A stretch of 64,000 bases of DNA. It comes from Candidatus Latescibacterota bacterium. Its GTDB lineage: Bacteria; Latescibacterota; UBA2968. Every line of letters starts with the position of its first letter. Position 1 is the first letter of the stretch. The translations under genes were made by a program, and so were the position numbers. A model generated the notes under the pieces. It was not told where the DNA came from. It searched no databases and was given only the letters and a program-made list of their open reading frames with translations. The DNA is taken from positions 1,664,001 through 1,728,000 of the forward strand of contig OZ242010.1 of NCBI GenBank assembly GCA_965204745.1. The letters run 5' to 3'. Of the stretch, positions 11,361 to 23,007 are shown piece after piece.

Positions 11361-11751
11361 GCGATTGGTTGTCTCCGCAAAATGCGTTGAGCAGGTCATC
11401 GGGAAGCGGATCGAAGAAGCTAAGGGGAATGGTCAGTCCACGGTCAATCCCTACTGGGCGCAATTTTGAGGAATCAATTGCCCCAATAATTTCCTCAGTT
11501 TCTCGATGGTCCTTTGATTCGGGGAAACGGTGGCTGGCGTTCAGGATCGTAAGGCCGATCACTTGGCCCTGCTCATAGCGGATGATCACGTCGTCGTCTG
11601 TCAGTTCGCTATCGTCTGCACGACTGGGTTTTTTGAAATTGACATACAACACATCGGCTTCGGCATCGTATGAAGACCACAAATAGTGCTTCGGGGAATG
11701 CCGCACTGCCGGGATTAAGTGTACATATTTATCTACTGTGATAGAGGCCAT
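11344..11751 (-). CDS. Chimeric antitoxin: DUF2283-like domain fused to a Phd/VapB-type C-terminal tail
   Basis: YDAEADVLYVNF...VIIRYEQGQVIGLTILNAS, then RPVGIDRGLTIPLSFFDPLPDDLLNAF; overlaps the vapC start. Confidence 0.75.
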   Translation of the reverse strand: MASITVDKYVHLIPAVRHSPKHYLWSSYDAEADVLYVNFKKPSRADDSELTDDDVIIRYEQGQVIGLTILNASHRFPESKDHRETEEIIGAIDSSKLRPVGIDRGLTIPLSFFDPLPDDLLNAFCGDNQSHETPA

Positions 11752-12044
11752 ACTTGCTTTCTCCTGTTTAGGGAATTTATTCGCCTAAAAAAAAAGGCAG
11801 TGATGATAAATCCATCTGATCCTACCTCACGATACGGTACGAGCAGAAATTTTCCAGACTCTATCTCGCGTACCGCGATCAATTCGCCTTGGTTACCCAC
11901 GAGGATTTTCAGGGGGTCTGTGACAGTTTCGAGGATTTCTTCCCGCATGCCTGCGAGTTCACAGTGTTCTTCTGTAATATGTGCCCAGCGTTCATCTGTG
12001 AGCCGGATCGGGATGCCGTTTAGCGATTGTGTGACTTCGTCCAT
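11733..12044 (-). CDS. Putative RelE/BECR-fold toxin (DUF4258-like partner of DUF2283)
   Basis: IRLTDERWAHITEEH...ETVTDP...VPYRE...GFIITAF; ~100 aa, overlaps the DUF2283 gene. Confidence 0.7.
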   Translation of the reverse strand: MDEVTQSLNGIPIRLTDERWAHITEEHCELAGMREEILETVTDPLKILVGNQGELIAVREIESGKFLLVPYREVGSDGFIITAFFFRRINSLNRRKQVWPLSQ

Positions 12045-12066: not shown

Positions 12067-12558
12067 TTATCCGCTCGACAAATCTCGCTTGGCGATTAGG
12101 ATGCCGTCTGCGTCTGCGTAGAGATAATCGCCGGGCAGGAAGGTGACGCCGGCAAATGCGAGGGGCGTGTTTTGGCGGCCATGGCCTTCTTTGCGACTGC
12201 GGCGCGGCACAGCGAAACGCGCTTTGACGCCGATAGGGATTTTGGCGAGCTCGGAAACATCGCGCACCCCGCCGTTGATGACGATGCCCGACCAACTGTT
12301 GTCGCTGGCGATTTGCGCGACCATATCCCCCAACAGCGCGCACCACGTCGAAGCCTCGCCATCGACGACGAGCACGCGACCGTCGCCCGGGGTTTCGAGC
12401 ACTTGGCGCACGAGCGCGTTGTCTTCGCAAACTTTGACCGTGGCAATCGGACCGCAAAATGCAAGGGTCCCGCCGTAGTCGTCAAACAGGGGTTCGGCAA
12501 CTTGGAGCGTGGGATCGGTTTCATATTCGTCGCACAAATCCGTGGTATTGAAAGCCAT
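12067..12558 (-). CDS. rraA: RraA family protein (RNase E regulator / HMG aldolase-like)
   Basis: MAFNTTDLCD, FCGPIATVKVCEDN, VLVVDG, ALLGD, GGVRD, GDYLYADADG. Confidence 0.92.
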   Translation of the reverse strand: MAFNTTDLCDEYETDPTLQVAEPLFDDYGGTLAFCGPIATVKVCEDNALVRQVLETPGDGRVLVVDGEASTWCALLGDMVAQIASDNSWSGIVINGGVRDVSELAKIPIGVKARFAVPRRSRKEGHGRQNTPLAFAGVTFLPGDYLYADADGILIAKRDLSSG

Positions 12559-12772
12559 CGATGATCTCCCAGAATTTTGATGAACAAGGTGCTGACCGCT
12601 TAATATGCGTTTCAAAAGCGACTTGTCAATTTTTTTGTTTCGCAAAGCGGAACGGGGTACAACTGGCCGTTTTTCAGACCCAGTTCATCAGCAAAGGGCA
12701 TACGGATTTTGGGGCTGTTGGGCGGCCCTCTCCCGTCTTACCTCTCACCTCTCCCGTCTTGCCTCTCCCCTC

Positions 12773-13762
12773 TCACCATTCAAATACCACGCCCAAGGCT
12801 TCTGTTGGATCGTCGGCGAGCATGTCGAAGGTGGTCTGGCAATCGGCGGGTTTTGCGATATGGGTTATCAGGTCTTCAATGGGCAACTTGCCCGCGGCCA
12901 TCAAGCGCAAGACCAACTCGCGGTCCCTGCGCTTGTTCCAGGGATAGTAGATGTGCTCATCGTCCGGCGTTTTGGGCTGGTGCGCGCCTAAAATGGAGAC
13001 TTCGCGCTGGTGAACTTCGGGCAAAAAGCTCACTTCCACTTTGCCGCGTGGAGACCCCAGCGCGACCAGTCGCCCACCCAGCCGGGGCAAAGAGAGTGCC
13101 GTGGGATAGACTGCGGGGATGCCAGTCGCTTCAATGACCAGGTCCACGCCGTCGGCGGTGCCGTGGTCGCGCACGGCTTGGGCGACATCGGCTACGGCAT
13201 GGGGATTGAGACAGACATCTGCGCCCCGAGCACCGGCCCTGTCCAACCGGAAGGGGTTTATGTCGATAGCAATGACCGGCAAGGCGCCGGCCAAGCGGGC
13301 AAAGGTGGCCGCCAGTTGGCCCACAATGCCCATGCCGGTGATCGCGACGACCTCGCCCAATTCGGGACGGCCGACCCGGTGCCCGTGCAGGGCAATGGCG
13401 CACATGACCATAAAAGCCGCGGATTTGGGGGACACGCCCGCAGGCACTTGAAAGAAGTTCTGGGTCAGGACCGCGTGGTGCGCGTGATTGCCCTGCCCGG
13501 CGACGCGGTCGCCGGGTTTGACATTTCGCACGTCTTTGCCGACTTCGAGCGCGATGCCCGTGTTGCAATAGCCGGTTGGGCGCGGGAAGGTTCTCGGCCG
13601 GGATGGCTCGCCCCCGTGTGCGTAGTTGTAGATTTCCGTGCCGACGCTGATGGCGGTGTAATCGTTTTGCACCAAGATGCCGTGGGCCGGCAGGCGCGGC
13701 AATTCAAATTCCCGCAATTCGATCCGCCGAATGCCCGTGCAGACCAAGCGTTGCGATTTCAT
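12773..13762 (-). CDS. MDR-family (zinc-binding-type) alcohol dehydrogenase
   Basis: AISVGTE, TGYCNTG, GDRV, GMGIVG Rossmann motif, DLVIEATG, LITH. Confidence 0.9.
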   Translation of the reverse strand: MKSQRLVCTGIRRIELREFELPRLPAHGILVQNDYTAISVGTEIYNYAHGGEPSRPRTFPRPTGYCNTGIALEVGKDVRNVKPGDRVAGQGNHAHHAVLTQNFFQVPAGVSPKSAAFMVMCAIALHGHRVGRPELGEVVAITGMGIVGQLAATFARLAGALPVIAIDINPFRLDRAGARGADVCLNPHAVADVAQAVRDHGTADGVDLVIEATGIPAVYPTALSLPRLGGRLVALGSPRGKVEVSFLPEVHQREVSILGAHQPKTPDDEHIYYPWNKRRDRELVLRLMAAGKLPIEDLITHIAKPADCQTTFDMLADDPTEALGVVFEW

Positions 13763-13773
13763 TTTTCGTTCTC

Positions 13774-15096
13774 CTATGGGGGATCGACCGGGACTTTCTG
13801 GCGTTTTGGAATGAGGGGATCGTAGGTAAAGCCCTCGGTTGCCTTTTCAAATTCCGCGCGGGCCGCTCGCAACTGCTCGGGGTTCGAGATCAGATCGATG
13901 GCCGATCCGGCAAAGACTTTGGCCGTTTGCAAAATCGCGCGCTCGGCAAAGGGCATGGCGGCTTGGGCGGTCATGTCTCGGTGATGGCCCGGCGTGCCCT
14001 TGGTATAGCACACCATCTGAAACCGGCCCATCGGCGCGAGCCACGACACATTGTCTTCATCCGATGAGCCGCGCCCTTGCGACCCCTTGCCCGTTTTGAT
14101 TTTCCCATCAAATTTGCCTTTGTACCCGAGTGCCTGCACGCGCTCCTCGTCTTTTTTGGATGCACGCGGCGGGCCGAATAATTCGAGGTTTTGGCGCACG
14201 GTTTCACCCATGGCATCGTTTGGCAACCGGGGATAGACAGCCGTGATCCGATGCCATTTCATCGTGGTTTCCGTGGCCATGGCCGCGCCTTTGGCGCATT
14301 TGGTCAATCGCTTGCGGATCTCATCGACCTGTGCGCGATCTTTTCCCCGCACGTAGTACCACACTTTCGCGTAGGCCGGCACCACATTGGGCGCGTCGCC
14401 ACCATCGCGGATCACGCAGTGAATACGCACGTTTTCGGGGACGTGTTCGCGCAAATAATTCGCCGCAATATCCATCAACATCACGCCGTCCAATGCGCTG
14501 CGCCCATGGTGCGCGCTCGCGCCGTGAGACGTTTTGCCAAAAAATTCGTACACCAGCGAATCCAGCGATGAGCCTCCGCGGTTGTTCACGCCCGTACTCG
14601 TTCCCGGATGCCACGCGAGCACCGCGTCCAAATCGCGGAACGCGCCATCGCGGGCCATATAGACCTTGCCGGACAGGGTCTCTTCGGCCGGGCAGCCGTA
14701 ATAGATGATCTGCCCGGGGGATTTCAAATTTTCCAACACTGCTTTTGCAGCGACCGCACCTGCGGCCGGGGCAACGCCCAACAAGTTGTGGCCTCAGCCG
14801 TGCCCCCATGTGCCTTCCTCAGCACCGCAGTTGGGCAATGCGTCGTATTCGCCCAACATGCCAATGGCGGGCTTGCCCATCCCCCATGTGGCGCGAAAGG
14901 CGGTTGGGATGTTTTTGAACGGAAATTCGATTTGGAATCCATTGTCTTCCAAATAGGTCGCCAATGCCTTCGACGATTCGCGTTCCCGAAAGGGCCGCTC
15001 GGCCCAGCCGTGAATTTGCCTGGACAGATCAAACGCCCGTCGCGATTGGGCTTTCACCGCAGGGTTGACCCGTGATTTTTTGGTTTTCGCATCCAT
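13774..15096 (-). CDS. M20 family amidohydrolase (AbgB-like) with in-frame TGA at 14794-14796 in place of the conserved Cys; probable selenoprotein
   Basis: Two ORFs in one frame join as LGEYDAL...GHG[TGA]GHNLLG...GCPAEE...WHP...GSSD; family motif is GHGCGHN; hairpin downstream of the TGA. Confidence 0.85.
14745..14774 (-). promoter_or_regulatory. Candidate bacterial SECIS element
   Basis: mRNA UUGC-CC-CGGCCGC[AGGU]GCGGUCG-CU-GCAA; apical loop begins 32 nt after the UGA and contains G. Confidence 0.65.
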
Positions 15097-15110
15097 GATG
15101 GCAGTCCTTT
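15031..15110. repeat. 80-bp direct repeat (RBS and 5' end of the M20 gene), copy A
   Basis: 79/80 identical to 18238-18317. Confidence 0.95.
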
Positions 15111-15120
15111 TTGTTGGCGA

Positions 15121-15162
15121 TTACTCCCGCACCGAGTTGACAAGTCGCGCGATGATTTCATT
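15121..15162 (-). pseudogene. Displaced 3' tail of the serine hydrolase gene (NEIIARLVNSVRE*)
   Basis: 15142-15162 is identical to 26129-26149; the current gene ends NEIIARLIDAVKK*. Confidence 0.8.
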
Positions 15163-15169
15163 GATGAGT

Positions 15170-17119
15170 TCAACCGAGATTATTTCCCGCCTTTTGCTTT
15201 GCTTCTCGAAGTTGATCGTATCGCTTTAGAAATTCTTTGTGTGCTCGTTTTACCATGGCGAGTAAATCTATGTACCTTCTGATGTAGATTTGCGAATTTG
15301 CTAAAATTTTCCTTTTTCCTCTCACTTGATAAGTGCCCACCAAATCTCCACAAAGGAGATATCCGGTGACGGCCTCGTACTGATAATCGAGATCCGTCGT
15401 CTGTTGAATGTTCTCCCGCATGAAGATAACGTACTCTTCAATTTGATCGAGTTCCTTCACAGAAGCCTTTGACCGCGGGCGTTTGATTTCCACTACGACT
15501 AAGTTCTTATCTTCTCGCACGCAGAGGAAATCAATGCGTCTGTCGCTTTCCGGGGCGTCGCTATTTTCCGGGAATTTGTCGCGCAGTAAGTCGCTATATC
15601 TCACCTCGTCATCGACCAATGTCCAACGCGGGTCAATCACCCACGGAAATTCTTTTAAGAAGTTGTGGAGCGTCGGTACTTCTAACGCATTGTTCTCAAT
15701 CAATTTTTGAAGTTTTTCAATTGTCGTGATTCGCCCTTGAGTCACCCTTGCCATTTCCTTTGCTTCGACAATTTCCCATTCCCGAAATAAATTGAGGAGT
15801 TTTTCGGTGTCCTCAAACTCCGTTTTCGTCAAGTCTTCAGCGATTTCCCAAAAAGCATCAAACTCCAAAAAATCAAGGGAGGTTTGGATGATGGGTTCGA
15901 GTTCCGCAACCTCGGCAATCGGATTCTTGTCAATCGCTTGACGCACCAATTGATCTGCCAACTTCAATGCCCGCTTATTGCCAATCTCCTCTGCTCGTTC
16001 TCGGAACTCGCCATAGACCGCGTTTTCTTCCAATTGCCGTTCATTATCTTCGCGGCGTTTCTTCGACCACTCCCGAGCAATTCGCTTGACCTCTTTATCA
16101 CCCCACTCCTTGAGAGCCGTATTCGCCTCCGTATCCCATACCAATGAGTTGCGCGTCGTTCCGATTGTATCTTCTCCTTCATCGACAAACTCGACGTGAA
16201 GTTCTCCAATGAGGTAGGAAAGCGCGAACTGTTGGCCGACAACCGCTTCAAAGACAAACGGCTCTTGGACCAATTTTCCTCTCGCCATCAGAACGATTCC
16301 GCGGTCTATCCCATCGATATCCGGCGTTGTGCGATTGAGCGCGCCAATCCAACCCGATACGGTCCAGCCCGTTTGGGGTTGGATTTCCTCTTTATCGTAT
16401 TCCCACAAATACGGCGCATCGTTCATATCTTTGTCGAGCAGGCGTTTCAAGTCGCGGTCTTCAGGCGAGATTGGAATCCCGTTAATCGCGACCTCAAAGT
16501 TTTGTCGCGCCCCAATGACAGCGAATCGCCTTGCGAGCCCTCGGCGGATTCTTTGAATCGAAATGCGGCGGGTTTGAAATTTTGTGATGTGTCTGAGGAT
16601 GACTTTTGTGCCTTTAGAGACAGTGCCAGTAGAAGCCAATGGCGGAAATTCGATTTTGCGCTCATCCGCTTTTTCCAACAGTTCGTCGTAGTTCATGCTG
16701 AAATGGCTGACTTCGCCATCTTTCACACTTTCAACATCGATCTCTTTGGCGATGCCAAACGCCGAGAACTTACCGATGCCTTTTCTGCCCATGATTTTGC
16801 GGCTGTGCGGAGGAGGCGTCTCATCGGATCGCTCATTTTCGCGCCGGTCTCGACCGATAATGAGGTATTTTTTTCGCACATCCCCATCTGACATGCCCAT
16901 GCCATCATCGCTGATGACGATTTCAGAGGTTTGTTCGTCAATCGGCGTTTCGGGTATGGTAATCTCGACCTTGGTTGCGTTTGCATCCCAACCGTTGGCT
17001 ACCAATTCCCCGATGACTGGCGGCAATGTCGAGTACATCTGCAAGCCGAGGTGCTTAATGGTATAAACGTCAAATTCCATCCGATATGGGGCTTTGGAAG
17101 CGACTGCGCGAGTACCCAT
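15170..17119 (-). CDS. GHKL/MORC-type ATPase fused to a C-terminal PD-(D/E)XK nuclease (R-M associated)
   Basis: ELVANGWDA, DDGMGM, GRKGIGK, GT motifs; C-terminal RRIDFLCV...VVVEIKRP...QIEEY. Confidence 0.85.
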   Translation of the reverse strand: MGTRAVASKAPYRMEFDVYTIKHLGLQMYSTLPPVIGELVANGWDANATKVEITIPETPIDEQTSEIVISDDGMGMSDGDVRKKYLIIGRDRRENERSDETPPPHSRKIMGRKGIGKFSAFGIAKEIDVESVKDGEVSHFSMNYDELLEKADERKIEFPPLASTGTVSKGTKVILRHITKFQTRRISIQRIRRGLARRFAVIGARQNFEVAINGIPISPEDRDLKRLLDKDMNDAPYLWEYDKEEIQPQTGWTVSGWIGALNRTTPDIDGIDRGIVLMARGKLVQEPFVFEAVVGQQFALSYLIGELHVEFVDEGEDTIGTTRNSLVWDTEANTALKEWGDKEVKRIAREWSKKRREDNERQLEENAVYGEFRERAEEIGNKRALKLADQLVRQAIDKNPIAEVAELEPIIQTSLDFLEFDAFWEIAEDLTKTEFEDTEKLLNLFREWEIVEAKEMARVTQGRITTIEKLQKLIENNALEVPTLHNFLKEFPWVIDPRWTLVDDEVRYSDLLRDKFPENSDAPESDRRIDFLCVREDKNLVVVEIKRPRSKASVKELDQIEEYVIFMRENIQQTTDLDYQYEAVTGYLLCGDLVGTYQVRGKRKILANSQIYIRRYIDLLAMVKRAHKEFLKRYDQLREAKQKAGNNLG

Positions 17120-17137
17120 AACATGTCTCCTTCAGCA

Positions 17138-18163
17138 TCAACGCGAATCGGTAATTGATTTGCCCAACTGTTCTGCGAGTTTCACCGGGACAGCGTTGCC
17201 GATTTGACGAGAACAAGAAATCAAAGATGAACCGAAAAACTCGTAATCGTCTCCAAATGTTTGCAAGGCAGCGGCCTCGCGTAAGGAAATGCCCCTGTCT
17301 TGCTCGGGGTGTATAAAGCGACCACAATAAACATCGGTGCAACGACACGTCAACGTCGGACTCGGCTCATCCCATGCCATCCGCCCAAACACATCTTTAT
17401 GGGCGTTTGGTCTCTTTTGGTGACAGGGTAACAGAATAGAGGTGTCGGTCACATCCCGCCGACTGCCGCCGTTTTTGGGGATGGCTAAGACGATGCGTTT
17501 GTGGTGCGGTTGCAGTTTTCTGGCGACGTGATTCGGATGGGCCTTTGATGCTTCGCCATCGGCAATTGCAGGGTACTTTTCAATGCACGCCCGCACGGTT
17601 GACATCCGGCTTGGATCTGTTTGTGGCTTATGTAGAGAGATTGCCCCGTGTCTGGATGCCACGAGGATGAATCTCTTGCGCGTTTGCGGAACGCCGAAGT
17701 GTTTCGCGTCGAGCAAATCCGCCGCCGCCGAAAAGCCGCACCTTTTTAAGGTCGATAGAAATTCTTTGTAGATTTCTTTTCCGTGAGCTTTATGTAGCCC
17801 GGGGACATTTTCAACGAGAATAAAATCAGGAGGGCATTTTTTGATGATTTTTGCAAAATCCAATAGGAGTATTTTTCGTTTGTCTTTGCCTTTCTGCCTG
17901 TTGAGTGTAGAAAAGGGTTGGCAGGGCGTACACGCCGCATAAAGGATGAGGTCTTGCGGCTGGATGCCGAGTTCTTCCCGAAGTGCTTCAATCTCAATAT
18001 CATTGATGTCGCTGGCAATAAAACGACTGGGCTTGTTATTGTGCGTGTAGGTCTGTTGCAAGCGTTCATCATTGTCCACGCCTGCCAACACCGAGATGCT
18101 GGCATTCAACAACCCCCTCGTTAAACCACCCGCTCCGCAAAAGAAATCAATGGCTTTGATCAT
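17138..18163 (-). CDS. C5 DNA cytosine methyltransferase
   Basis: FFCGAGG, PCQPFS, ENVPG, PQTRKR, REAAALQTF, QIGNAVP. Confidence 0.96.
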   Translation of the reverse strand: MIKAIDFFCGAGGLTRGLLNASISVLAGVDNDERLQQTYTHNNKPSRFIASDINDIEIEALREELGIQPQDLILYAACTPCQPFSTLNRQKGKDKRKILLLDFAKIIKKCPPDFILVENVPGLHKAHGKEIYKEFLSTLKRCGFSAAADLLDAKHFGVPQTRKRFILVASRHGAISLHKPQTDPSRMSTVRACIEKYPAIADGEASKAHPNHVARKLQPHHKRIVLAIPKNGGSRRDVTDTSILLPCHQKRPNAHKDVFGRMAWDEPSPTLTCRCTDVYCGRFIHPEQDRGISLREAAALQTFGDDYEFFGSSLISCSRQIGNAVPVKLAEQLGKSITDSR

Positions 18164-18239
18164 GGCATACCTTTCAAATTCTCAACCAAGCCTTGGAATG
18201 CTTTATCCAACAACCCCAACCCCGGCAACCCCTCCACAA
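18160..18239 (-). pseudogene. Displaced 3' tail of the type IIG/ISP-like R-M gene (VEGLPGLGLLDK...GMP*)
   Basis: 18215-18239 is identical to 23033-23057; its TGA overlaps the methylase ATG (ATGA). Confidence 0.8.
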
Positions 18240-18317
18240 ACGCCCGTTGCGATTGGGCTTTCACCGCAGGGTTGACCCGTGATTTTTTGGTTTTCGCATC
18301 CATGATGGCAGTCCTTT
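18238..18317. repeat. 80-bp direct repeat, copy B
   Basis: 79/80 identical to 15031-15110. Confidence 0.95.
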
Positions 18318-18535
18318 CATGTCTGTACAAAGATAGGCTCACGGATCACATCTCGAATTTCCGCAACGGACTCTTCAGCGAGCAGGCGATTGGCTTCAAG
18401 GGTCATTGCGATTGCCTCTCGAATATTGACCCGAACTTCATCGAGCGTCTCCCCTTGCGTGTTCGCGCCGGGCAATTCTTCGACAAATCCAATATACCCT
18501 TCCGAGACTTTTCTATAAACTGCGGTGAATTTCAT
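18317..18535 (-). CDS. hicB: HicB family antitoxin, orphan
   Basis: YIGFVEELPGANTQGETLDEVRVNIREAI; AAGGAG RBS; no hicA adjacent. Confidence 0.9.
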   Translation of the reverse strand: MKFTAVYRKVSEGYIGFVEELPGANTQGETLDEVRVNIREAIAMTLEANRLLAEESVAEIRDVIREPIFVQT

Positions 18536-18609
18536 GTTGGAAATCTCCTTTCGCGTTGTCTCGATCTACTGACGCTACGCACAACTTCACATATGCGTTG
18601 CTTGTCTAA

Positions 18610-18880
18610 AGCGTTTGGTCCTATAGCATCGTTTATTGCCTTTGATGCCTTCGGCGACCTACTTTTTTTCTACAGCAAAAAAAAGTAGGCGAGCGGGGTA
18701 CAACTGCCCCAGCAGTTCAAAAATGCCGCTCTCAAACGCCGAGAGGCTTGCACAGCGCAAATCGCTTTTGTAATCGCACGACATGCGCCAGCCTGCAAGG
18801 TGGGTTGCATAATGGAGGTTGGTTGCGAAACGGACTTGCGCGCTGTGCCTGATGGCTTTTTCCGATGGGTTTTTTGATGG
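18610..18880 (+). mobile_element. MITE-like element copy 2 (core only, carrying a 28-bp mini-element insertion)
   Basis: Aligns with 6110-6355 and 50311-50556; extra GAGCGGGGTACAACTGCCCCAGCAGTTC at 18691-18718. Confidence 0.8.
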
Positions 18881-18883
18881 CAT

Positions 18884-20377
18884 TCACCGTGAGTAGTCCG
18901 ATGGATTTTTCATGTTACCATTGATCACAAATACAAATGCCTTAGATGGAAAATCTTTGGCTATATCGTCTCCCCCATGAGTCTCGACATCAGTAAGAAT
19001 AATATCGTTCCGAATGTCGCCGGGGGGCTTATCTTTGGTCGTCAGGTCGAGTACGAGAAGGATGCTGACTTGTCGGGCTTCGACGCCTGCATATTGAGTA
19101 GCTTGGGCTGTGTACTTTTTCGAGATGTGCTCTCGGGCACCGTTTTCCTTTTCGACTTTTAGTTCGACAATCACTCCGCAATACCTAATATCTGTGACGC
19201 CCCCTGCTTGGCTTGAGTGTTCTTGTACATCCTGTCCGAGCACATTCCGGAGATCTCGAAGCACTCTTACTTGGAACTTAGCCTCCGATACATCACTCCG
19301 TCCCTTGTAGATTGCTTCTTGAGCATAAGTAGCCAGCAGACGAGTGAGAGCCTGAAGCATCTTTAACAAGTCAGGAAGTTCATAGCGGACTTTGGGACAG
19401 TCTGAAAGCAGTCTTGTGGCAAGTTCGTTAATGTGTTGATCCAGTCTCCGGTTGCCTGTCATCAGGGGATGCCTAGCTTCATTAACAACTTTGAGACGCA
19501 ACTCATTGTGCCCAATTACGGGGAGTTTAATGAACTTTCCGTCGGACGTTTCAAATGCGCCACGAACTGTAAATACAAGATCATCTAGACCGCTACTTTG
19601 CTCTGAATTGAACTTAATTTGTCCTGCTAATTCCCCCCGATACTCGCCATTTTCAACACTACCCGGTGCGGGCAGCACAAATTTGGAAATCGAGAACTCG
19701 GTTGAGGGACACGTCGTAAGCAAGTCAAGGTGAAGGCGAATCGCATCATTGGGCCATGTGAGGCCACGCACCCGAAATTCCAAAGGGTACAAAATATTGG
19801 GTTTTAAGAGTTGTGGACTTGCAAGCGGAGCATGATCCAGAAATACAATCACCCTCAACATCGGGCTTAGTGTAGCTACGGGTTCTTCTACCGCACCTTG
19901 ATATGGAAGATCCAATTTGCTTCTATGCCAGTACAAGATAGGTAGTGGGACTGCCAAGAGGAATGCACGCAGTCTGTCGGAATCGCATTGCCCTGTTTGG
20001 AACAATGATTGACGAATTGAATCCGCGATACCCGGCAATGTGAGAGTGTCCGACGAAATCCAACGTCGTAGCTCATCAACTAAGACATCGCATCTTGCAC
20101 GTTCCGCAACCAAGTCACCTTCACTACCTTGGGCAATTGCTACACAAGTAACTTGACTGACCAAGACACGTAGTCCGGCAACGACGACCTCCCACTCTAC
20201 AGGTACATACCCATCTGGCGTCTGTTTGATAAGTTTGTCAATCTGATCGACGAAAGTATCAACCTTCTGACACCATTCTACTTTATCATCAGTGTCCGAG
20301 TTCAAAATCGTGCGTATATCATGAATGAGTGCCACTGAATTAGAAGCATGATCAATATCCAACTTGGATTCCCACAT
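18884..20377 (-). CDS. Hypothetical protein with a C-terminal PD-(D/E)XK restriction-endonuclease-like domain
   Basis: GGVTDIRYCGVIVELKVEK...QATQYA; AT-richer than flanks; TGATG coupling to the upstream gene. Confidence 0.7.
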   Translation of the reverse strand: MWESKLDIDHASNSVALIHDIRTILNSDTDDKVEWCQKVDTFVDQIDKLIKQTPDGYVPVEWEVVVAGLRVLVSQVTCVAIAQGSEGDLVAERARCDVLVDELRRWISSDTLTLPGIADSIRQSLFQTGQCDSDRLRAFLLAVPLPILYWHRSKLDLPYQGAVEEPVATLSPMLRVIVFLDHAPLASPQLLKPNILYPLEFRVRGLTWPNDAIRLHLDLLTTCPSTEFSISKFVLPAPGSVENGEYRGELAGQIKFNSEQSSGLDDLVFTVRGAFETSDGKFIKLPVIGHNELRLKVVNEARHPLMTGNRRLDQHINELATRLLSDCPKVRYELPDLLKMLQALTRLLATYAQEAIYKGRSDVSEAKFQVRVLRDLRNVLGQDVQEHSSQAGGVTDIRYCGVIVELKVEKENGAREHISKKYTAQATQYAGVEARQVSILLVLDLTTKDKPPGDIRNDIILTDVETHGGDDIAKDFPSKAFVFVINGNMKNPSDYSR

Positions 20378-22974
20378 CAAGTTTCATCCTTTCCCTTTGT
20401 AAAATATGCTTCAGCCGCTACTGTGTCACCGGTTTGTAGTGATGCGTTTCCTGCGGCGATCATCGCGAGTTGCTGTAATTTTGTGCGAAATGCTTCATGT
20501 CTTGGTTCTTTTGCGAGAGCGTTGGTTGCGGTCTCCAATACATTTTGCTCGTATTGAAATGCGCGGAAGTGCGAGAAAAGGCTTGCGAAATGGCGTGATT
20601 CCCAAGCATCACGTTTGGCTAGTTGTAGGGCGGAAACCAAGAGGTCATCTGCTATACTCTGATACGTTGCGACTGGAAGTTGGTGTAGCCATTTGAAGAA
20701 TCGAAAATGTCCGTAGTAATTAGAGCGATCTCTGTCATGGTACGCTATATGCACACCAATGTCTTTGGCAACAAATTTAGCAATTTTTTCGTTTGGCTCG
20801 CAGAACCGAATCAGGTTTTCCGCGATCTTTCTATCTACAAAATATTCTTTAGTCGGAAAGACAGACTTGACCATGCGTAACGCCAATAGTTTGAGGCTCT
20901 CATCTCGGTGACCAATTTTCAGGATTGCATCGCAGATACCTTCGAGTTGATATTTATCATTATGATACACACGAAGGTGTGCTTCAAGACACTTAAGAAC
21001 TTCAAGTGGTTGCCTTTTATCAAACCACTTTGAACACCGAGCCACGGCTTGTCGCGCAGCTCGATGAACAATGACTTTCGGATCTTGTAGGTGAACGATA
21101 ATGGTGTCCACAAGATTTTGGGGTGGCATAGTGGTCGAAGAAGAGAACATCTCGACTGTTGCGTTTATTGCTTCAGCCCGCACCCAAGATGAATCGTAAT
21201 CCATCAACGTACGCCAAATCAAAGGTAGTACGCGTGTTTGGAGAGTATAGTTCTTGCCAAGTTCACCGAGCAACGATACACAGCACCCCTTGAATTCGTC
21301 CTCAAGGTGTGCTGACGGTTGGTTCAAACAGTTGAAGACAGAATCGAATGTCTCTGAAGGCTTGGCTTTGCAGAGTTCGTTCAAGCATCCCTGCAATCGT
21401 CTTTTGAATAAATCCCATTGTTGGATGCGCCCTAATTCTTCTAGCAACTGCTCAAGTTGAGTATCTTGCGTCTGAACCTGGTTAGGTAGCAGAATTTTGG
21501 GCGGTGAGGCAGGCGGAGGTTCCTCGCCACTAATGATGGCAAAATAACCGAGGAGAGAGTCAAAATGGTTCAGCATCTCTGCTGAGGCATCTTGACAGGC
21601 GATTTCCAACGCTTCAAATGCAGCGGCTCGAATATCGATCTCGAATCTGTCGTCCTTAGCCCATGAAAGTAACCGCTTAATTGCAATCTTCTCCTGTTCT
21701 GACACTTCAGTTCGGTTTCTATGATCCTGTCGTTCTTCCCAACTTACGGTCTGGTCAAAAAGTGGGCCTCGGTACACACGAATAATATCTTCTTGCACGG
21801 CTGGACGAACGCGGGTCATTGACTCGGCAAGAAACTGGTCAACTCTCTCTGGGGAATACCGAAACGCCGATTGCAAAATTTGGATAATCTGTTCTGATGG
21901 CTTCTCTGCACCTGACCGTGTATTTTCGTAAAATTCAAGTGATTGAACTAAGTCGCCAAGTAGATTCTCGGCTATCTGTGGTCGTTCGCGCTGAATGAGT
22001 TTGATCGTTCCACACAATTGGAAGCGTTCGGCCTCACTCTCGTTTTGTAGTTCGCGGCGAATAATGTTTTGCACACTCTCTGGGTCAGCGTCAAAATTTC
22101 GTACGATGACTGCGGTACTGTGATAGTAGCCAGATTCATCGTAGGCCCTATTACGAAAGAAAAGGTAGTGATCCTGCGAAAATATCAAGTGTTTGATACA
22201 TGCTTCACTGAGTGGATACTCAACGGCGTCACCGAGCGCGTTAAGCATTGCGGCAGACAACTCTGGAGATTGTCCTTTCACAATATTGTCAAAAGCTACT
22301 TGGCTAAAGCGAGGGCCTAACTCAGAGCGTTTGCTGGCGAGTGTTGTACAGACCGGAAGCATTAGTTCGGAAAATTCGGCGGAACCGGCAAGTAGCAAGA
22401 TCAGGTCAATAGCATCGTCCGGAAACAGATCTGCCCCCAAGAGTGCAGATTGTTGCAAGCGTTCGGATGCTTCCTTACGTTCGGTTTCATCTTCAGAAAA
22501 AAACTCCTCGAGATACTTAAGTATGCTGTAAGCTTCGGGTTCTGATTCCGAGCTGATCTCCCCGGATTTTATACGCAAATCAGAGCGGAGTTGGGATATT
22601 CGCTCCGCTTCTGTTTTGGTTGCTTGCTCGCGTTCTTGGACTTCTTTTTTGTTTTTTTTTATAATCTCTTGTCCCCAAGAAGTATCTCCATTAGGAGTAT
22701 GATGCGGACAAATGGCACAATGTTCTACAAGGAAATTGGAGAAAATCCAACGAAGATTCATGGACTCGTGCATGCCCTCTACTTTAGGGCAACCTATGCT
22801 ATGGCTTGCAATGGGAAGTCCTGTCCATTGTGCGTAAAGCCCTTCAGTGGTTCGCTCAATCTCCACATGTTTGCACCAACGCCGCATTTGGCGTATGCAC
22901 TCAGCATTGTCCTCGCCGAGCTTTATAGCTTGCTTAAAATCATCATCTTGAGTTTCGTCGAATCGTCGCATCAT
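20377..22974 (-). CDS. Large alpha-helical (HEAT/ARM-like) hypothetical protein with a Cys/His-rich N-terminus
   Basis: 865-aa ORF, AAGGAG RBS; WCKH, GCP, HCAICPHH near the N-terminus; Leu/Glu-rich helical remainder. Confidence 0.75.
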   Translation of the reverse strand: MMRRFDETQDDDFKQAIKLGEDNAECIRQMRRWCKHVEIERTTEGLYAQWTGLPIASHSIGCPKVEGMHESMNLRWIFSNFLVEHCAICPHHTPNGDTSWGQEIIKKNKKEVQEREQATKTEAERISQLRSDLRIKSGEISSESEPEAYSILKYLEEFFSEDETERKEASERLQQSALLGADLFPDDAIDLILLLAGSAEFSELMLPVCTTLASKRSELGPRFSQVAFDNIVKGQSPELSAAMLNALGDAVEYPLSEACIKHLIFSQDHYLFFRNRAYDESGYYHSTAVIVRNFDADPESVQNIIRRELQNESEAERFQLCGTIKLIQRERPQIAENLLGDLVQSLEFYENTRSGAEKPSEQIIQILQSAFRYSPERVDQFLAESMTRVRPAVQEDIIRVYRGPLFDQTVSWEERQDHRNRTEVSEQEKIAIKRLLSWAKDDRFEIDIRAAAFEALEIACQDASAEMLNHFDSLLGYFAIISGEEPPPASPPKILLPNQVQTQDTQLEQLLEELGRIQQWDLFKRRLQGCLNELCKAKPSETFDSVFNCLNQPSAHLEDEFKGCCVSLLGELGKNYTLQTRVLPLIWRTLMDYDSSWVRAEAINATVEMFSSSTTMPPQNLVDTIIVHLQDPKVIVHRAARQAVARCSKWFDKRQPLEVLKCLEAHLRVYHNDKYQLEGICDAILKIGHRDESLKLLALRMVKSVFPTKEYFVDRKIAENLIRFCEPNEKIAKFVAKDIGVHIAYHDRDRSNYYGHFRFFKWLHQLPVATYQSIADDLLVSALQLAKRDAWESRHFASLFSHFRAFQYEQNVLETATNALAKEPRHEAFRTKLQQLAMIAAGNASLQTGDTVAAEAYFTKGKDET

Positions 22975-23007
22975 TTTTTGATTCTCCTTAGCAGATGTTG
23001 CTACCTA

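Follow-up and report, generated by a model that had tools for sequence, protein, structure and literature searches.

A conserved in-frame UGA at the metal-bridging cysteine position of an M20D amidohydrolase points to a selenoprotein in Candidatus Latescibacterota

Selenoproteins are, with few known exceptions, redox enzymes, and redox chemistry is the accepted reason for the use of selenocysteine (Sec). According to a review, selenium is coordinated to molybdenum or tungsten in FdhA and Sec to nickel in hydrogenase, so that in FdhA and the [NiFeSe] hydrogenases Sec is a direct ligand of a catalytic metal. The M20D amidohydrolases, in contrast, hydrolyse their substrates at a dinuclear (Zn/Mn-type) site without a redox step, and their solved representatives HmrA (3RAM) and PM20D2, a beta-alanyl-lysine dipeptidase (7YH4, 8XZC), are Cys forms of a GH[GA]-C/U-GHN motif. 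Here we analyse a gene on the minus strand (13774..15096) of a 64,000-nucleotide window of Candidatus Latescibacterota contig OZ242010.1 (assembly GCA_965204745.1, positions 1,664,001 to 1,728,000 of the forward strand; all coordinates below are those of the window), whose product shares family, fold, two-domain organisation and motif with HmrA and PM20D2 and differs from them in a UGA-encoded residue at the Cys position, a conserved hairpin downstream of it and a paired zinc-type dehydrogenase-like gene. We consider it highly probable that this is a genuine Sec-encoding gene in which Sec replaces the metal-bridging Cys. The site proposed here would then resemble those of FdhA and the [NiFeSe] hydrogenases in placing Sec next to a catalytic metal, and would use the same decoding mechanism; such decoding would be ordinary, and what is unusual for a selenoprotein is the kind of protein and the part played by the residue that Sec replaces.

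The coding sequence runs from an ATG at 15096 to a TAG at 13776-13774 and comprises 440 codons plus the stop; a Shine-Dalgarno-like AAGGA, read from the sequence, lies 8 nt 5' of the ATG (15105..15109, minus strand). Its sole interruption is a TGA at 14796-14794 (codon 101; 14794..14796, minus strand), set in the motif W-G-H-G-TGA-G-H-N-L-L-G, and there are no further stops or frameshifts. The original prediction, made from the letters of the window, was that two open reading frames (ORFs) of 100 aa (14794..15096) and 336 aa (13774..14784) are one frame split by this TGA alone, and reading the frame from 15096 to 13774 bears this out: the two are halves of a single frame, the TTG start of the longer one being the in-frame codon of Leu105. 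The codon was also checked against sequencing data, and contigs from four runs of four studies that cover it all carry TGA, with no TGC or TGT difference, a result that bears on presence and not on transcription; the stretch is present in runs labelled sponge and marine metagenomes. One run (X10), with a relative 90-95% alike, carries a C>T change on the plus strand at 14751 that turns Ala116 into Thr while the TGA is retained; the change hits the bottom closing pair of the hairpin described below, the stem of which would then be 6 bp.

Sequence and predicted fold place the gene product among the M20D amidohydrolases, most probably as a cytosolic metallo-amidohydrolase or dipeptidase of the HmrA/PM20D2 type. 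The NCBIfam model TIGR01891 ('amidohydrolases') matches with 193.4 bits (cut-off 153.75), and the Pfam families Peptidase_M20 (PF01546) and M20_dimer (PF07687) match with 26 and 32.6 bits (cut-offs 24.6 and 21); among the NCBIfam matches there was no model dedicated to such a selenoprotein. The nearest solved sequences found with phmmer are Staphylococcus aureus HmrA (3RAM, E 8e-43) and human PM20D2, or Xaa-Arg dipeptidase (7YH4 and 8XZC, E about 2e-37). An AlphaFold2 model built from 65 sequences (predicted local distance difference test, pLDDT, 94.1; predicted template modelling score, pTM, 0.92) has the two-domain M20D fold, with a catalytic and a lid or dimerisation domain. Its best Foldseek match is again HmrA, with template modelling (TM) scores of 0.83/0.93, a root-mean-square deviation of 1.9 A and about 26% identity, followed by PM20D2 (7YH4; TM 0.79/0.87), then by the M20D proteins CsAga (6SLF), 4EWT, YxeP and ILL2 (1YSJ, 1XMB) and afterwards by DapE, CPG2 and ArgE. 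The modelled fold points to a dipeptidase or an N-acyl-amino-acid amidohydrolase. The prediction had assigned the gene to hydrolases of the AbgB/ACY1L2 type, of which the M20D membership stands, by the margin of the TIGR01891 match, whereas the closest relatives are HmrA and PM20D2 and not AbgB proper. AbgB belongs to the same broad M20D superfamily, and many homologues are labelled 'aminobenzoyl-glutamate utilization protein B' by JGI (Joint Genome Institute); the Klebsiella Abg protein 3IO1, however, superposes far less well (TM 0.63/0.70, 16% identity), and neither of the two genes downstream is a homologue of AbgA or AbgT, the paralogue and the transporter that accompany AbgB, the rest of the window and of the genome not having been searched for them.

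Residue U101 aligns with the Cys of GHACGHN in both HmrA and PM20D2, in agreement with the earlier claim that the UGA occupies a metal-ligand Cys column, and a review describes this Cys as bridging two zinc ions in the M20D enzyme CsAga. Across 77 homologues, the most distant at 33% identity, positions C/U101, H103, E138, E139, H163 and H371 do not vary, and column 101 is Cys in all 76 of the aligned Cys-form homologues. We take Cys-His-Glu-His-His with an adjacent general-base Glu to be the metal-ligand set of M20D enzymes, and likewise assume the bridging Cys and the ligand list of HmrA. The putative metal site of the protein studied here would be complete only if Sec is inserted at the UGA.

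The TGA has been kept wherever close relatives have the gene. Among 41 close relatives, 39 have it, with exactly one TGA per copy, and the two without it share one genus. The 168 genomes of the phylum include 55, from three taxonomic families, that have a copy at 72-100% identity, each with one TGA, and the remaining 28 matched places, at 68% identity or less, contain no stop. Within 50 fetched loci, the TGA column is identical in all 44 TGA loci and the other six have TGC; in a wider set, to which the named genome and metagenome contigs were added, 67 of the 167 loci have TGA at the same column and the other 100 have TGC or TGT (99 by pattern, and L057, which is TGC according to the fetched-locus set). 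The 67 TGA loci include many genomes fetched twice and amount to 42 distinct full-length coding sequences. The alternation between TGA and Cys that had been proposed as a check is therefore found at this column, with TGA in 55 of 55 close orthologues and TGC or TGT in distant ones, which is the Sec/Cys pairing looked for in a bacterial selenoprotein gene. Both sides of the TGA are also constrained as protein: the ratio of nonsynonymous to synonymous substitution rates (dN/dS), computed pairwise against 12 orthologues, is 0.06-0.19 on either side wherever computable, in pairs whose synonymous sites are often saturated (dS often >1). The UGA thus recurs in orthologues (55 of 55) whose coding sequence is constrained before and after the codon (omega about 0.1).

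The relation between the Sec and Cys forms was examined in a FastTree phylogeny of 151 proteins, in which the 42 Sec forms all group in a single clade of 47 rows. This clade is nested among Cys forms of metagenome-assembled genomes labelled Latescibacterota, Planctomycetota, Verrucomicrobiota and Kiritimatiellae. The clade also holds five Cys forms (P0002, P0003, P0004, P0013 and P0017), known from protein sequences alone. Just outside it lies P0018, which in this tree is identical to the translation of locus L133, with TGC in the DNA. The FastTree topology requires at least 3-4 changes between Sec and Cys. A quick IQ-TREE tree of 43 rows agrees, and an approximately unbiased (AU) test gives p = 0.0009 against all Sec rows together, for a group that was named after the first tree had been seen and in a subsample that lacks 20 of the 42 distinct Sec sequences and the majority of the Cys rows. 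A strict single origin without reversal is contradicted both by the number of changes in the FastTree phylogeny and by the AU test. The simplest reading is one Cys-to-Sec change within one Candidatus Latescibacterota clade, followed by at least two reversals.

If the TGA form has been exchanged for Cys two times or more, then Cys is functionally acceptable at this position, and release factor 2 is a known competitor of Sec insertion in bacteria. Both points fit a role of the UGA mainly in regulated termination or attenuation, in which the gene would mostly yield the 100-residue fragment and give the full-length protein when selenium is present, the codon acting as a switch and not in catalysis. 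Such a switch would still need Sec insertion and so is compatible with a Sec-encoding gene. As the main function of the codon, however, we find it unlikely: the UGA is located precisely at an invariant catalytic-site residue, it has been retained through saturated synonymous divergence, and the 100-residue fragment is not a folding unit in the AlphaFold2 model.

Decoding of the UGA as Sec calls for a dedicated machinery, and the search of the genome suggested alongside the original prediction returned all of its parts. The source genome is a single contig of 5.48 Mb that encodes a tRNA-Sec (selC) with anticodon TCA (70 bits, cut-off 47) adjoining selD, the adjacent genes selA (585 bits) and selB (378 bits), and a selD (373 bits) with its own single in-frame TGA; all four lie above curated cut-offs. 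TGA is the commonest stop codon in this genome, where it ends 791 of the 1542 ORFs of at least 400 codons, and it is thus not reassigned. Among the 55 TGA-bearing genomes, selA was found in 54, a co-occurrence that is a matter of counts only, as selA is common and the relatives are not independent. The one orthologue-level Cys form among the species representatives of the phylum is a TGC copy at 68% identity (genome G154, locus L053), and selA was found neither in this genome nor in its congener G155 (same class, genus g29; 86% and 90% complete, respectively). The selD gene of the source genome, outside the window (G000:C1:2158634-2159765; loci L001 and L020), reads S-C-G-G-U-A-S-K around its own Sec codon and has a hairpin UCCAGC[GGU]GCUGGA about 20 nt after the UGA, the GGU loop of which is closed by C-G and resembles that of the M20D gene.

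The M20D gene itself carries a proposed SelB-binding Sec insertion sequence (SECIS) hairpin at 14751..14768 (minus strand), CGGCCGC[AGGU]GCGGUCG, with a 7-bp stem, a tetraloop AGGU in which G40 and G41 are invariant, a distance of 32 nt from UGA to loop and a computed stability of -11.4 kcal/mol. SelB recognises a G-U dinucleotide in the SECIS loop. The strongest sign of selection on this element comes from synonymous codon use. In the 42 distinct Sec-form genes, codon entropy, calculated over columns of conserved four-fold or six-fold degenerate residues, reaches its minimum for the gene over codons 107-114 (G-V-A-P-A-A-G-A; 14755..14778, minus strand), where it averages 0.16 bits, the median for groups of eight qualifying columns being 1.43 bits. 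Entropy falls below 0.5 bits in 11 of 205 columns, and eight of these are the consecutive codons 107-114. Cys-form genes that encode the same VAPAVGAV peptide use varying synonymous codons at the hairpin sites, so the synonymous freezing is confined to the Sec forms, and the proposed check that a downstream hairpin be conserved at nucleotide level in the TGA forms only came out positive. All the tests named in advance as able to refute the prediction turned out in its favour.

Base pairing is maintained along with the codons. In 39 distinct sequences, 99.7% of the cells of the 7-bp stem are paired, and variation is limited to two pairs: pair 33-48, both columns of which are synonymous third positions (GC 24, GU 11, AU 3 and one AC mismatch), and pair 38-43 (CG 25, UG 14). 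A second, small hairpin of 4 bp, GGGC[GUU]GCCC, is predicted from the RNAalifold consensus immediately 5' of the main one (14769..14779, minus strand); its four pairs are invariant in all 39 sequences while its loop differs between lineages, and it would explain why codons 107 and 109 are frozen at their third positions. The hairpin as originally described also had a lower stem, UUGC/GCAA. The 7-bp stem, the AGGU loop and the 32-nt distance are present as claimed, but the lower stem, though present in this genome, was rejected as a conserved feature, pair 27-54 being unpaired in 17 of the 39 distinct sequences. The likeness that had been noted between GCAGGU at the top of the hairpin and the Escherichia coli fdhF element is real, the hexamer occurring in the K-12 element 15 nt after the TGA, where the distance from UGA to loop is 17 nt compared with 32 nt here.

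According to PMC13188914, bacterial SECIS elements have a loop of 3-9 nt, a stem of 4-16 bp, a G in the first two loop positions, a distance of 16-37 nt from the UGA and a minimum free energy of -7.5 kcal/mol or lower. The hairpin of this gene obeys these rules, as do those of 41 of the 43 distinct Sec forms in all, and to that extent the SECIS check agrees with the original prediction; shape alone turned out to be a weak argument, for the reason given below. At one Cys-form locus (L141), the region aligned to 14740-14790 has a nearly identical stem with a GGGU loop. We speculate that a pre-existing palindromic hairpin in Cys forms may have eased the switch from Cys to Sec.

Several observations count against a Sec-encoding gene, or take strength from the arguments for it. 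On the RNA side, 43 of 87 distinct Cys forms pass the same SECIS rules, which gives the test little power here; the Ala/Gly-rich coding stretch is intrinsically palindromic, which explains why so many do. The 81-nt stretch folds no better than shuffled sequences (z = -0.92; 34 of 200 are as stable), covariation is weak (a single pair has changed in both partners, and the observed score is reached by 51 of 500 shuffles), and the 32-nt distance is close to the upper limit of the 16-37 nt range. Scanning 14600-14900 against Rfam (E up to 10) gave three matches, all at chance level and none a SECIS, Rfam having no general bacterial SECIS model. As to the machinery, selA did not turn up in G012, a TGA-bearing genome 91% complete in 430 contigs, and since 131 of the 168 phylum genomes have selA, its co-occurrence with the TGA form discriminates little. 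No RNA run carrying the stretch was found among 24 runs, and the assignment of U101 as a metal ligand rests on homology. After the shuffle and Cys-form controls, hairpin stability was dropped as evidence.

The weak covariation and the non-specific shape of the hairpin, together with the indirect nature of the case for selenium, are also what could be said for read-through independent of SelB, in which a near-cognate tRNA for Cys or Trp, or a suppressor, would place an ordinary residue at position 101. We regard this as very unlikely. It does not sit well with synonymous freezing over the hairpins in TGA forms only, with a full Sec machinery (as judged by selA) in 54 of the 55 TGA-bearing genomes, or with TGA being the commonest genuine stop in the genome. 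Moreover, the metal-bridging Cys, invariant in 76 homologues, is not replaceable by Trp, and a single mutation would give a Cys codon, so that keeping TGA for inefficient insertion of Cys would be senseless. From the pattern of constraint and the presence of the machinery we infer that SelB decodes the UGA at the conserved hairpin.

The same codon explains how the gene appears in public databases. A search of 5.8 billion protein clusters found no full-length relative above 81% identity; the closer relatives, up to 98% identical, are all C-terminal fragments of 294-336 residues, one of them entered in GenBank as 'peptidase dimerization domain-containing protein'. The N-terminal piece is represented by 64 clusters, mostly named 'hypothetical protein'; in 54 the length is exactly 100 residues. 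The presence of both fragments in the databases means that the gene is systematically split in public annotation, and the expectation that it would be mis-annotated, with a 100-aa 'hypothetical protein' and a 320-336-aa 'peptidase dimerization domain' fragment standing in for the intact gene, has come true. The two annotated pieces are the one thing in favour of a pseudogene, or of a gene split into two separately translated parts, which has practically no chance of being right: a chance nonsense mutation is excluded by a single TGA kept through long divergence in 55 of 55 close orthologues from three taxonomic families, with protein-level selection on both halves (dN/dS about 0.1) and no other stops or frameshifts, and a break inside the metal-binding motif would leave neither piece able to form the site.

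In order to rationalise how a Sec-encoding M20D gene would operate, we propose that UGA codon 101 is decoded co-translationally as Sec. SelB with Sec-tRNA(Sec) would bind the conserved hairpin, with its G-G-U-containing tetraloop 32 nt downstream, and would deliver Sec to the ribosome, displacing release factor 2. Sec101 would thereby come to occupy the invariant Cys position of GH[GA]CGH, the bridge between the two catalytic metals in M20D enzymes, and a selenolate-bridged dinuclear centre could be formed with His103, Glu139, His163 and His371, Glu138 serving as the general base. Our guess, by analogy with Sec-ligated Mo/W and Ni centres as the review describes them, is that a selenolate bridge may resist irreversible over-oxidation or, as the softer ligand, may shift the affinity or specificity for metals. 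We lean towards the view that this selenoenzyme is the first of its kind, with Sec bridging the two metals of a centre that is hydrolytic and not redox: a selenolate-bridged M20D amidohydrolase, long kept in a marine and sponge-associated Latescibacterota clade, in which selenium confers an advantage in catalysis, metal selectivity or oxidation resistance on a Lewis-acid enzyme, and whose family no current catalogue contains.

Conservation of Sec in place of the bridging ligand of a dinuclear metallohydrolase would extend the known roles of selenium in enzymes. Other bacterial selenoproteins outside the thioredoxin-fold redox class have been predicted, among them, in a 2026 inventory, UshA-like, CTP-synthase-C-terminal-related, SaoB/SaoC and MbdU proteins. 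For some of these a Sec metal ligand has been proposed, and none belongs to the M20 peptidase clan. Unlike for those predictions, the role of the replaced Cys is known for the M20D gene from solved homologues. Because Sec and Cys forms up to 81% identical coexist, nature has also set up an experiment on the effects of a selenolate ligand, and a comparison of the two could address metal affinity, metal choice, activity and oxidative inactivation. As long as the gene is annotated as two fragments, the intact enzyme escapes surveys of selenoproteomes and reconstructions of metabolism in these uncultured bacteria.

The earlier suggestion to compare the gene with current selenoprotein catalogues was taken up with the 2026 review of 119 prokaryotic selenoprotein families, which has no M20 or other peptidase family and no PF01546, PF07687 or TIGR01891 in its Table 1. 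The terms peptidase, amidohydrolase, M20 and hydrolase are absent from the main texts of PMC13188914, PMC2398784, PMC12013277, PMC13326102, PMC13745706, PMC9312934 and PMC1794560. In the available parts of two further papers, PMC8318568 names no peptidase or amidohydrolase and PMC4807772 no amidohydrolase or 'peptidase M20', S9 of the latter being a place that could hold the family. Searches of literature full text gave no prior report, with the qualification that supplementary candidate lists of the deep-Sep and marine-metagenome studies could hold the family unremarked. As far as the searched literature goes, an M20D selenoprotein is unreported.

Downstream of the selenoprotein gene, 11 nt after its stop, begins a medium-chain (zinc-type) dehydrogenase-like gene (12773..13762, minus strand; ADH_zinc_N, 77.5 bits). 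It lies directly downstream in 20 of the 21 Sec-form loci with 3-kb flanks and is absent from L093, the sole locus of another bacterial family, and from all 37 Cys-form loci checked. The dehydrogenase-like gene is a probable operon partner within this bacterial family. Further downstream, an RraA-like aldolase/decarboxylase gene (12067..12645, minus strand; 148.5 bits) is found within 3 kb in 14 of the 21 Sec-form loci. The neighbourhood was also considered as a clue to the substrate and set aside, as the dehydrogenase-like gene occurs beside the Sec form in a single bacterial family and pointed to no substrate. Between the RraA-like gene and those that follow lies an ORF of 103 aa (11733-12044, minus strand) with no Pfam match.

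Directly upstream of the selenoprotein gene, also on the minus strand, lies a type II restriction-modification pair (15170-18163), made up of a 341-aa C-5 cytosine methylase and a 649-aa HATPase_c_3 protein that matches PADLOC REase_II (165 bits) and has a tail weakly similar to Shedu SduA_C. The GC content of the pair is 44-51%, compared with 56.5% for the genome, within a lower-GC stretch at about 15000-23000, and the ATPase/REase gene has no match in the locus of any relative; the region looks like a strain-specific islet. Beyond the pair follow, on the same strand, a 498-aa protein with an LmuA-like C-terminal part (18884-20380; PADLOC, 69.8 bits) and an overlapping gene for an 865-aa protein (20377-22974) without a Pfam or PADLOC match, and these two genes may be a further defence module within the islet.

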